DNA of 64,000 nucleotides from Eledone cirrhosa (taxonomy: Eukaryota): assembly GCA_964016885.1 (NCBI GenBank), contig OZ024759.1, positions 29,822,001-29,886,000 of the forward strand, read 5' to 3'. The position numbers were made by a program, and so were the translations under genes. The notes under the pieces were generated by a model. It did no database searches and was not told the DNA's origin. It was given only the letters and a program-made list of their open reading frames with translations. Of the stretch, positions 19,987 to 56,319 are shown one piece after another (position 1 is the first letter of the stretch; the number at the start of each line of letters is the position of its first letter).

Positions 19987-20461
19987 TATATTTCTTTAGG
20001 TCGTTTTGGAAACCTCAACAATGCAGATGGGTAAATCTCCGGGTAACAAGATCCGGTGGTGGAGAGAGAGAGATGTAAGTGAATGTAGGTTGAGATGTGT
20101 AGCGTGTAGAAGAGTGTAGGAAAGAGCGTAAAGGATAAAAATAATAACACGAGATAGAGTTACCTTGGGAGAGATTTAATTCACATCCATCAACTGGGGG
20201 GGGGGGGGGGTTCCGGGAACCCCCCCCCCCCTCCCAGTTGACGGATGTGAATCCGAAATATATAGGGACAATTAAATCTCTCCCAAGGTAACTCTATCTC
20301 GTGTTATTATTTTTATCCTTTACGCTCTTTCCTACACTCTTCTACACGCTACACATCTCAACCTACATTCACTTACATCTCTCTCTCCACCACCGGATCT
20401 TGTTACCCGGAGATTTACCCATCTGCTTGTTGAGGTTTCCAAAACGACCTAAAGAAATATA
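19987..20461. repeat. ~475-bp near-perfect palindrome (fold-back element) with a hammerhead-like motif near its centre
   Basis: Arms tatttctttaggtcg...gttcc / ggaac...cgacctaaagaaata centred on 20215; about 18 nt are missing from the left arm. Homologous to 48655-48745. Confidence 0.9.
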
Positions 20462-22449
20462 CCTTATTATTCCACAATGCTTCAAGCAAACTTCAATACT
20501 CTCTTATATATATATATATATATATATATATATATATATATATATATATATATTATATATATATATATATATAATATATATATATATATATATATATAAT
20601 ATATATATATATATATATAATATATATATATATATATATATATATATATATATATTTATATATATATATATATATAATATATATATATATATATATAAAT
20701 ATGTATGTATATATATGTACATATATATATATATATATATATATATATATTTTACATATATATATATAATATGTATATGTATATATATGTACAAATATGT
20801 ATATATATATAATGTATATATATATATATAATATGCATATATAATATGCATATATATGTACAAATATATATATATATATATATATATATATTCTTATATC
20901 TTTATTACTTCTGATGAAAAAGCCTGGATGGCGAGATGCATGTGAGTTGTTGGGGGAAATGTTCGCGTATGTCTGCAATTCTCGATGGAATGGTTGCAGG
21001 TATTCTCTTGCATTCTGTTGCATTCTCTTATTCTTAATCCGCTCTAACATTATAGATAGATAGATAGATAGATTTGTGTCTTGTTACATAATCAATACAT
21101 TGATCTATGCTTTTCTATGCCTTTTTATTTTATGTTACTCAGAATAAATATCAGCAATTTTTCTGTTTGTTTTTCATAGGTTGTAAGTATTGTAAGATAA
21201 TATTAGTAAAGCCATCACGGTGCTGGAGTAGTAAAAAATAATACCTAGTGGTATTTGTTTTGGTTCACTACTCTCTCAGTTCAAATGTTGCCGAGGTAAA
21301 CTGTGTCATTCATAATTTTGAGTTGACATTGTACCAGTCTGATACTGGATTTCATTTTTCCTCCCTTTCTCATTTTCCTTTTCGAGTGTGTGTGTGTTTG
21401 GGCATGTGTGAGTATATAAACATGTGTGGTGTATATGTATGTGTGAATACATACACACACACACACATATATACACATATATATATATATATATATATAT
21501 ATATATATATATATATATATATACATATATACATATATATATATCCATATATATATATATATATATACATATATACATATATATATATACATATATACAT
21601 ATACATATATATATATACATATATACATATATATATATATATATATATATATATATCCATATATACATATATGTATATCCATATATACATATATATATCC
21701 ATATATACATATATATATCCATATATACATATATATATATCCATATATACATATATATATATCCATATATACATATATATATATCCATATATACATATAT
21801 ATATATCCATATATACATATATATATCCATATATACATATATATATCCATATATACATATATATATATCCATATATATATATCCATATATACATATATAT
21901 ATATCCATATATACATATATATATATCCATATATACATATATATATATCCATATATCCATATATATATCCATATATACATATATATATATCCATATATAC
22001 ATATATATATATATATATATCCATATATATATCCATATATACATATATATATACATATATACATATATATCCATATATCCATATATATCCATATATACAT
22101 ATACAAATACATATATATATATATCCATATATATATCCATTTATATATATATATATATATATATATATATTTATATATATATATATAAATATATATATAA
22201 ATATATATATACATATATATAAATATATATATACATATATATAAATATATATATGCACACACACATATATATATATATGTGTGTGTGTATGTTTATATAA
22301 ACCTATATCTATATATTACATATATGGATTGTAGCCAAATATAAAGTGGGAAGCTTTCACAAGCTGCTGTTGTATTTGGTGGCAAGCCAGTAGCTTTGAC
22401 ACTAACTAAGGTTACACCACACCTTTCAATTTGTCTTTCAATGATTACT

Positions 22450-23830
22450 GGTTGTAGTGTTGGTGGTGTTGGTGTTCGTGGTGGTGGTGGTGGTGGTGGT
22501 TGTACTGTTGGTGTTCGTGGTGGTGGTGGTGTTGGTGGTGTTGGTGTTGGTGTTGGTGGTGTTGGTGTTGGTGTTGGTGGTGTTAGTGGTGGTGGTGGTA
22601 GTTGTACTGTTGGTGTTGGTGGTGGTGGTGTTGGTGTTGGTGGTGTTGGTGTTGGTGGTGTTAGTGGTGGTGGTGGTAGTTGTACTGTTGGTGTTGGTGG
22701 TGGTGGTGGTAGTTGTACTGTTGGTGTTGGTGGTGGTGGTGGTGGTGTTGGTGTTGGTGGTGTTGGTGTTGGTGGTGTTGGTGTTGGTGGTGTTAGTGGT
22801 GGTGGTGGTAGTTGTACTGTTGGTGTTGGTGGTGGTGGTGTTGGTGTTGGTGGTGTTGGTGTTGGTGGTGTTAGTGGTGGTGGTGGTAGTTGTACTGTTG
22901 GTGTTGGTGGTGGTGGTGGTGGTGGTGGTGGTGGTGTTAGTGGTGGTGATAGTTGTACTGTTGGTGTTAGTGGTGGTGGTGGTGGTGGTGGTGGTGGTGG
23001 TGTTGGTGTTAGTGGTGGTGGTGTTAGTGGTGGTGATAGTTGTACTGTTGGTGTTAGTGGTGGTGGTGTTGGTGTTAGTGGTGGTGGTGTTAGTGGTGGT
23101 GATAGTTGTACTGTTGGTGTTAGTGGTGGTGGTGGTGGTGGTGGTGGTGTTGGTGTTGGTGGTGTTGGTGTTGGTGGTGTTAGTGGTGGTGGTGGTGGTG
23201 GTGGTAGTTGTACTGTTGGTGTTGGTGGTGGTGGTGTTGGTGTTAGTGGTGGTGGTGTTAGTGGTGGTGATAGTTGTACTGTTGGTATTAGTGGTGGTGG
23301 TGGTGGTGGTGGTGGTGGTGTTGGTGGTGTTAGTGGTGGTGGTGGTGGTGTTAGTGGTGGTGTTGGTGGTGGTGGTGTTGGTGGTAGTGGTGTTGGTGGT
23401 GGTGGTGGTGTTGGTGGTTGTTGTCATGGTAGTAGTGGGGTGTTGGTGGTGGTAGTTGTGGTGTTGGTGGTAGTGGTGTTGGTGTTGGTGGTGTGGTGGT
23501 GGTGTTGGAGGTAGTAGTTGCGGTAGTAGTGGCGTGGTGGTGGTGGTAGTTGTGGTGGTGGTGGTGGTGGTGGGGTGGTAAAAGTTGTGGTAGTAGTGGT
23601 GGTGGTGGCAGTGGTGGTGGTAGTGGTGGCAGTGGTAGTTGTTGTGGTAGTGGTGGTGTGGTGGTTGTTGTGGTTGCTGTGGTGGTCGTGGTGGTCGTGG
23701 TGGTGTTGGTGCTAGTAGAGGTAGTGATGGTGTAGGTGGTAGTAGTAATGGTGGTGGTAATGGTTGTGCTTGTGAATGGTGATGCTGATAGTGGTGGTGG
23801 TAGTGGTGGTGGTAGTGGTGGTGGTCGTAG
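22450..23830. repeat. (GGT)n microsatellite with higher-order agttgtactgttggtgtt punctuation
   Basis: Directly visible; source of the spurious Gly/Val/Thr ORFs. Confidence 0.9.
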
Positions 23831-55835: not shown

Positions 55836-56258
55836 ATAAGATGTATCAGAGTATGTGTTTATTTTGTATAGGAAAGAAAAGGGAAGAGTGAACAATAATT
55901 TGCAGACAGCAATGAGGAAATGGAAATTTATCCAACATTTAACCCTTTAGCATTTAAACCGGCTGTATCCGGCCAGAATTTTCTCACCACTTTCTGTTCA
56001 AACTGGCTATAACCGGCCGCTCATACTAACGTTAAGGTATTGTTCTCAAAATAAATAGATATCCATGGTGGATATCTATCTATCTACGAGAGTGTGCTGA
56101 ATAGTTCATAGGCAGACTATGAAGGAGTTGCTAGAGCTGTGAAATCATGCATGCATTAATTTTCTTTTCTTATATATATATATATATATATATATATATA
56201 TATATATATATATATATATATATATTTAGTTATGTAATAAACAACATAAGATAATTAT

Positions 56259-56319
56259 TTCATTTACCAGTGGTTTCTTGAAGGCAGATGTTATGTCTGT
56301 CTTCAGTCATCAGAATGAA
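56259..56319 (-). ncRNA. Type-I hammerhead with an intact canonical core
   Basis: UUCAUU-CUGAUGA-cUGAAGaCAGA(cauaaca)UCUGcCUUCAa-GAAA-CC(acu)GG-UA-AAUGAA, flanked by (TA)n on both sides. Confidence 0.8.

Follow-up and report, generated by a model that had tools for sequence, protein, structure and literature searches.

A 64-kb stretch of the Eledone cirrhosa genome (C20:29822001-29886000 of the 2,996-Mb assembly, referred to here as the window) contains 15 type-I hammerhead ribozyme motifs, which belong to nine ribozyme-bearing repeat families and mostly lie in short islands bounded by (TA)n microsatellites. We read the islands as 5'-truncated 3' ends of repeats with hammerhead motifs. Seven of the families are linked to Penelope-like elements (PLEs), an eighth is so linked at one locus, and no link was found for the ninth. 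The endonuclease (EN) and reverse transcriptase (RT) of the elements probably inserted the islands into (TA)n. We put the probability of this reading at about nine in ten. Hammerheads on truncated PLE ends were already known from a description of 2014 and, in Octopus, from one of 2021, and the window adds further members; what could be of use beyond the known kind is the scale, a rule by which a long and a short 3' end are paired, and the variant ribozyme cores.

Hammerhead motifs in the window

The motifs parse in the order stem I, core, helix II, GAAA, helix III, NUH, stem I. The original prediction had cited about a dozen motifs, in roughly eight families. All 12 cited positions parse as type-I hammerheads, each lying at or within one base of a parse end, except 28296, which is the first core base. 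The count rises to 15 with the mirror arms at 40483-40578 and 28244-28295 and an overlooked copy at 48658-48692, and the families that carry a ribozyme number nine. A canonical core (CUGANGA/GAAA/NUH, or its U3-A8 covariant) was found in 9/15 motifs. Eight of these have an intact CUGANGA/GAAA/UH core, including 28741, whose 3' stem I is missing, and 28926, with a stem I of 2 bp; the ninth (49665) has the known U3-A8 pair. The other six comprise two damaged cores (28592, with U3.G8, and 28244, with UAAA for GAAA), two C3.A8 cores (40612 and its mirror) and two CAGUUGA cores (20233 and 48658).

With a strict descriptor (CUGANGA core, helix II of at most 45 nt, stem I of at least 4 bp), 5 hits were obtained in the window, while sequences shuffled block-wise by dinucleotide averaged 0.05 and 0.03, with no more than 2 in any of the 120. 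A relaxed descriptor discriminated less, with 4 window hits against at most 3 across 40 shuffles. Descriptors with a helix II ceiling of 45-60 nt or a fixed core miss families E and D, and the motif of family E was worked out from its copies elsewhere in the genome. In this motif (46042) the core lies 114 nt upstream of the GAAA box and is closed by a long helix II (z -4.5), whereas the window motif of family D has a helix II region of 56 nt and a stable helix III. Helix III is able to form in the monomer in D, H and most B copies.

Stem covariation, whose absence was to count against the motifs, is present in helix II of family A. The alignment held 38 distinct sequences chosen by the tail outside the ribozyme (3 window copies and 35 of 58 tail-selected rows), leaving out its own query loci, rows in which the 5' core was absent or much sequence was deleted, and second arms nearly identical to the first. 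Related sequences included, 93.4% of cells were paired and 43 cells were changed on both sides, values not matched in any of 500 shuffles, and registers slid as controls were 35-56% paired. The helix II exchanges were AU/GC 22:11, GC/AU 17:16 and UA/CG 24:14, and a CG/AU exchange was seen in stem I of family B.

It could be argued that palindromic, AT-rich DNA yields such motifs by chance, as the window is 64% A+T, with 44% tandem repeat and 8.7% (TA)n, the relaxed descriptor finds up to 3 hits in shuffled sequence and Rfam finds no hammerhead. This explanation is refuted by the shuffle, reversed-pattern and covariation controls. The 5 strict hits in the window exceed every shuffle, 35 strict hits were obtained in 40 arbitrary 10-kb stretches of the genome (400 kb), compared with 0-1 across 15 shuffles, and genome-wide patterns gave 201,273 matches against 185 for the reversed controls, in addition to the covariation in family A.

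In accordance with the claim that the islands are mostly bounded by (TA)n, (TA)5 or longer was found within 300 bp on both sides of 12/15 motifs, on one side of 2 and on neither side of 1 (the 48658-48692 copy). About half of all window positions pass a similar proximity test, so that the window by itself argues only weakly for a link with TA. In the arbitrary stretches, 34/35 strict hits lie within 300 bp of (TA)5, against a background of 34%.

The motifs resemble the metazoan PLE hammerheads of Cervera and de la Pena 2014 (PMC4209133) in their type-I fold, palindromic helix III and extra base after A9, and also in the U3-A8 covariant, the 2-bp helix I, the prevalence of single motifs and the opposite-strand pairs 100-700 bp apart. 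They differ from what is described there in having a monomer-competent helix III (D, H and most B copies) and cores with A4 or C4 plus U6.

Parent elements of the families

Copies of each family were sought in the genome with nine window queries, each of which gave 735-2,290 first-look candidates, 40 of them scored. For seven families (A, C, D, E, F, G and I), copies that extend further upstream reach same-strand coding sequence for RT and/or the GIY-YIG EN, at a distance that is constant within the family. In family D the EN ends at -1007 to -1025 (4 loci), in F at -227 and -228 (2 loci), and in G the coding end is at -428 to -430 (3 loci). RT was found in 3 loci of family C, with the end of the open reading frame (ORF) approximately 1.35 kb upstream of the ribozyme; the EN lies 2.3-2.6 kb upstream in 3 loci of family E; and in family I the ORF ends approximately 390-480 nt upstream in six loci (L208, L332, L338, L344, L345, L349). 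For family A, the EN was found in locus L217 and its last codons also in L029, while the EN in L020, considered as another, belongs to family E. Inverted RT-EN pieces beside family B in L281 and L282 were likewise set aside as its parent because they do not lead to the B ribozyme.

The suggestion that these are PLE or retrozyme-like elements is thereby upheld in its PLE part, with longer copies of seven families adjoining PLE ORFs; no tandem monomer array bearing the motif was found in the window to uphold the retrozyme part. It had also been stated that the window holds no PLE RT ORF, and none of ten in-frame PLE seeds, the same seeds that served in the parent searches for B and H, matched there at E 0.01. 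Among 30 long stretches there was no intact unit with an ORF between two pseudo-long terminal repeats (pLTR-ORF-pLTR).

The clade of each parent was judged from motifs compared by eye with the alignments of Craig et al. (PMC8557442). On these motifs, the parents of A, D, E, F and G are Hydra-type and that of C is Neptune-type; the parent of H, seen at one locus, is probably Hydra-type, and that of I resembles Nematis in its RT and EN. The description of the families as unrelated did not hold for all of them, since five or six have Hydra-clade parents. The RT motifs RWK/RWR and DKT are seen in E and G, and the CxCX5C linker with the EN motifs in A, D, E and F, in some across frameshifts; the linker of G is expanded. 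As in the Hydra PLEs of PMC8557442, these Hydra-type parents have no cysteines between GIY and YIG, which are flanked by CxxC and CxH. They further share with them (TA)n targets, a type-I hammerhead near the 3' end and a U.U at the base of helix II (File S2), and the linked proteins resemble, by eye, Hydra-1_Obim of Octopus bimaculoides, for which Craig et al. 2021 (PMC8557442) report a (TA)n preference and a hammerhead. In contrast to the Hydra PLEs described there, five or six families occur here in a single 64-kb window, the 3' untranslated region (UTR) reaches 2.3-2.6 kb (family E), the tails measure 65-165 nt against 30-40 bp, and helix II regions of 56 and 114 nt are found. In O. vulgaris, the repeat annotation lists recently active Penelope families, and its main text is silent on hammerheads or ribozymes.

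Family C agrees with Neptune (PMC8557442) in DKG, GVAMGTRMGP, YIDD, a CX4CxxC linker and cysteines between GIY and YIG; in two of its loci (L201, L202) we read a CX2-5CxxC linker and a C-terminal CCHH EN. Family I is close by eye to the Nematis rows of the same paper, except that its linker lacks the last cysteine of CxxC. A clade for family B on the basis of its U.U in helix II was dropped, as the same feature occurs in a Neptune-type family. In C, D, E and H, the identity of the best genome copies is 98-100%, and that of the 40 scored copies of C is 99-100%, which indicates that these four families are young.

Some further observations concern the elements themselves. Two independent copies of family A (L017, L029) have a (TA)n tract at one and the same position of the 3' UTR, as if the element carried its own target. 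Splice-donor-like sequences (AAG/GTATGT, AAG/GTAACT) are found near ribozymes, upstream of that of family A in L018-L030 and downstream of that of family I at window 20292-20298; donor-like sites near the ribozyme are what would be expected for a PLE intron. In L240, a Neptune-type EN is followed by another hammerhead family, copies of which are frequent in the arbitrary stretches as well (L311, L314).

Two 3' ends and the insertion of the islands

In each family, one ribozyme is followed by a short tail and then by (TA)n, with (TA) standing directly after 594/737 aligned 3' ends. The 5' ends vary while the 3' ends are fixed. Families A, B, D, E, F, G, H and I have two fixed 3' ends each, 40-165 nt apart, here called long and short; C has one. 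Among the head-to-head pairs tabulated for six families, a long end was joined with a short one in 136, two long ends in 2 and two short ends in 2, and 13 pairs had an arm that could not be classified. Copies met incidentally showed the same, with long and short ends paired in 64/65 (p 2e-18 against one half). A tail at one end only, together with an inverted 5'-truncated copy, is a hallmark of PLEs, and it takes the form of long-with-short pairing in 136/140 classifiable pairs, which argues against mirror artefacts and simple snap-back. Craig et al. (PMC8557442) noted that frequently just one end carries the tail, so the pattern is known in outline; a count of the arm pairing was not found in a limited literature search.

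Fold-back palindromes had been noted before, and head-to-head insertions are present in several window families, where those of B, D, E, H, I and the first of A obey the pairing of long with short. The family I insertion (19987..20504) comprises a minus arm with the short end and most of the ribozyme gone (19987-20198) and a plus arm with the long end (20233-20504), whose hammerhead at 20233-20267 has the core CAGUUGA and a predicted cut after 20264. A tail-only insertion of family H (27846..27909) joins an inverted short-end piece to a forward long-end piece and lacks the ribozyme core. Beside it, the first family A insertion (27930..28155, plus strand) begins with an inverted long tail (27930-28002) and continues as a forward arm ending at the short end, with an intact hammerhead at 28042-28103 (predicted cut after 28095). 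The family B insertion (28160..28362) carries a plus-strand hammerhead (28289-28340) with an intact core, one helix III mismatch in this copy and the short end, and a minus-strand one (28244-28295) with the UAAA change and the long end. In the second family A insertion (28455..28823), the minus arm with the long end holds the damaged hammerhead 28592-28652, and the plus arm holds the hammerhead 28741-28801, where (TA)n replaces the 3' stem I.

The young family D insertion (40391..40722) has hammerheads on both arms, at 40612-40707 (plus, short end) and 40483-40578 (minus, long end), with the core CUGAGAA and its C3.A8 mismatch. A D-like 3' half of a ribozyme, with a damaged GAAA box and without a 5' core, lies at 45900..45963 (plus). 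In the young family E insertion (45976..46467), the plus arm has the long end and no 5' core, whereas the minus-strand hammerhead (46042-46188) is complete, with a 114-nt helix II region, a 7-bp stem I and the short end. The remaining islands with a hammerhead are family C (28838..29124, minus; young), with the minimal hammerhead 28926-28957 (CUGAAGA / GAAAC-GUC); a sister subfamily of A (29634..29834, minus), with an intact core in the hammerhead 29672-29736; family F (47113..47250, plus), with an intact core at 47113-47150, a short end at approximately 47184 and a separate inverted tail piece (47217-47250) on the opposite side of (TA)n; a second copy of family I, overlooked before (48658..48739, plus), truncated and away from (TA)n, with its CAGUUGA hammerhead at 48658-48692; family G (49545..49760, plus), whose hammerhead 49665-49704 has a bulged stem I; and family H (56226..56319, minus), with an intact core in 56259-56319. 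The earlier note also overlooked a tail-only head-to-head insertion of family J (29999..30178), longer genome copies of which carry a hammerhead-like motif with the core CAGAAGA. Short TA-bounded pieces at 29533-29600 and 28370-28420 belong to a further repeat family, probably another PLE tail.

A mechanism for these insertions can be sketched from the anole PLE, for which Frangieh et al. 2024 (PMC11167929) found in vitro that both target strands are cut and extended, that two internal start sites bound the tail, and that ribozyme cleavage is dispensable for insertion. By analogy, the GIY-YIG EN would nick TA-rich DNA and the RT would start at one of two internal RNA sites, giving the two ends. 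From the pairing rule we infer that both target strands are primed, each from a different start site. Synthesis of either cDNA would usually end prematurely, and short homologies would then serve to join the two head to head, yielding the fold-back palindromes. A new insertion would leave (TA)n on both sides, so that families could pile up in one tract. The ribozyme may serve the full-length element, likely through protein-assisted or dimer-dependent RNA processing, while solitary copies in the genome probably have little or no activity. The anole Poseidon element PAc resembles the present families in its two genomic 3' ends bounding the tail, its AT-rich targets and its hammerhead just upstream of the ends; unlike in PAc, no ORF was seen starting at the ribozyme in the one family checked (A), and the different-end rule for inverted arms is not reported in the part of the PAc paper available to us. 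The pairing of long and short ends sets a limit, drawn from genomic copies, on models of how the second strand is made during PLE integration.

Several results weigh against our reading. Frangieh et al. found that the two strands did not differ in their start site (PMC11167929), which does not itself predict a strict pairing of long with short ends. For family B, no parent ORF was found in 56 loci with the ten in-frame seeds, and the sole same-strand EN within 1.1 kb belongs to a different family; family H is linked to a PLE at one locus only, where the EN is cut short. Pfam names 3/14 frames, all of family I (GIY-YIG, E 2.9e-6; RVT_1, E 3.1e-6, below the curated cut-off), hence the clade labels rest on motifs and not on a tree. 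In the family A alignment, two of five measures were no better than shuffles (4 double-change pairs against 4.1; 12 further pair types against 13.6), and the presence of related sequences inflates the cell counts. The full three-way junction appeared in the minimum-energy structure of 2/9 motifs folded (D and H), which can be explained by helix III being a short palindrome that needs a dimer (PMC4209133). The proposed Rfam check found no hammerhead over the window at gathering score, nor at E 10 for two motifs alone; 150 of the 708 window matches were listed, none of them a hammerhead, and those on TA repeats were microRNA models. The motifs are minimal or extended variants, which published work found with descriptors.

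Two other explanations accept the motifs as real. The palindromes could come from a single cDNA that snaps back at a small hairpin formed by helix II or stem I, instead of from priming on two strands. The fold-back points are indeed often inside helix II (D) or at the 5' strand of stem I (B), with short inverted repeats (judged by eye and uncounted), and the two arms often share private variants. However, snap-back predicts identical 3' ends, and the ends differ in 136/140 pairs; moreover, tail-only insertions such as 27846-27909 join two pieces that do not overlap. We therefore consider this origin unlikely.

The islands could instead be non-autonomous non-LTR retrozymes, which consist of short tandem units and propagate by way of self-cleaved circular RNA with the help of a borrowed PLE RT. 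Many copies are short and without any ORF, family B has no linked ORF, and a related motif occurs in tandem arrays elsewhere with a period of approximately 420-570 bp (C1:5541143-5543136, C1:9969550-9972121). The likeness to non-LTR retrozymes (PMC7229834; bioRxiv 10.64898/2026.07.22.740005) also extends to the type-I hammerhead, PLE ancestry and high copy number. Nevertheless, retrozymes are recognised as tandem units of 150-450 bp, and the window has no tandem array bearing the motif, its copies have variable 5' truncations with fixed 3' ends, and seven families run into PLE ORFs, which makes a retrozyme origin of the islands very improbable compared with truncated, EN- and RT-inserted 3' ends. 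Tandem arrays of one hammerhead family with this period (C1:5541143-5543702, C1:9968462-9972121, C1:11021447-11022336) are candidate true retrozymes derived from a PLE end, outside the window.

Genome-wide scale, variant cores and neighbouring repeats

The strict-hit density of the window (78 per Mb, from 5 in 64 kb) is similar to that of the arbitrary stretches (88 per Mb), so the window is typical of the genome and no hot spot. The 201,273 genome-wide matches, about one per 15 kb, were obtained with seven patterns that test the core, spacing and family flanks and not pairing, count both arms of palindromes, and omit C, E, G and others. They comprise 83,596 for the A group (reversed control 0), 79,511 for the group with a short U.U helix II, which includes B and F (control 181), 6,683 for H (0), 5,648 for D (0), 3,180 for I (2), 1,675 for a sister of I (2) and 20,980 for J (0); the core is CUGANGA in 169,790 of them. 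Extrapolation from the 400-kb sample (262,000; bootstrap 135,000-419,000) was set aside as too high, as the sample over-represents the family A pattern (20 against 11 expected), and the pattern counts were used for the genome total.

Earlier counts are 2,000-9,000 hammerheads per genome (PMC4209133), with more than 6,000 motifs in a coral and approximately 5,000 in a mussel, and 126,247 in the axolotl (PMC7229834), the largest published count that we met. The approximately 200,000 matches in 3.0 Gb exceed all of these, and one may ask how the transcripts of the host cope with so many motifs.

Several families depart from the textbook core. The main core of family I is CAGUUGA with a variable position 7, which supports the register. 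Its sister family has CCGUUGA, an EN 65-70% identical to that of I, and GGGC/GCCC in helix II in place of GGAU/AUCC; this covariation indicates that the fold has been preserved despite the deviations at positions 4 and 6. In family J, A4 was present in 100/100 matches listed (CAGAAGA). Family D is mostly U3-A8, with C3.A8 in 24 of the first 100 matches listed and in the young window subfamily. The cores CAGAAGA (family J, for which no parent was traced) and C3.A8 are absent from the File S2 rows of PMC8557442. Perreault et al. reported natural A6C and U4C variants of low activity and a U.U at the base of helix II. A core combining A6U with A4 or C4 was not found in the literature searched, which did not cover Lunse et al. 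(the likeliest source) or the supplements of PMC4209133 and PMC3088659. Further families with good stems have a CCGAAGA (C4) core (L070, L206, L208, L205, L220, L225).

The plain reading is that selection on catalysis has been relaxed in the odd cores, which agrees with the finding that insertion in vitro can do without cleavage (PMC11167929). A more speculative possibility, which we consider doubtful, is that C-[A/C]-G-U-N-G-A (family I and its sister, approximately 4,900 matches) and CAGAAGA (approximately 21,000) are working natural variants of the hammerhead that may need the element's protein for activity, with core positions 4 and 6 freer than in textbooks. If this were true, the genome would also be the densest known store of hammerheads, at about one per 15 kb, and the pairing rule would be a genomic record of a two-site, two-strand step of PLE integration. 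Families that are young or abundant and have a non-canonical main core offer a natural way to learn if PLE hammerheads need to cut at all, a question left open in PMC8557442 and PMC11167929.

Other repeats share the window with these islands. Satellite arrays at 53509-55623 (88 bp x24), 58676-59829 (108 bp x11) and 9833-11742 (31 bp x62) have no hammerhead hit inside. A fragment at 34182-34742 (minus strand) reads by eye like the C-terminal part of the RT of a long interspersed nuclear element (LINE), and one at 56675-57355, also read by eye, we take to be from a Tc1/mariner transposase. A family resembling short interspersed nuclear elements (SINEs), with a weak tRNA match, is present at 41014-41071 (minus strand), with related copies near 7876-8224, 33779-34180, 40759-41080 and 47305-47651; the short repeats of the window are presumably akin to octopus SINEs, and the SINE-like copies often sit at TA tracts beside PLE ends.

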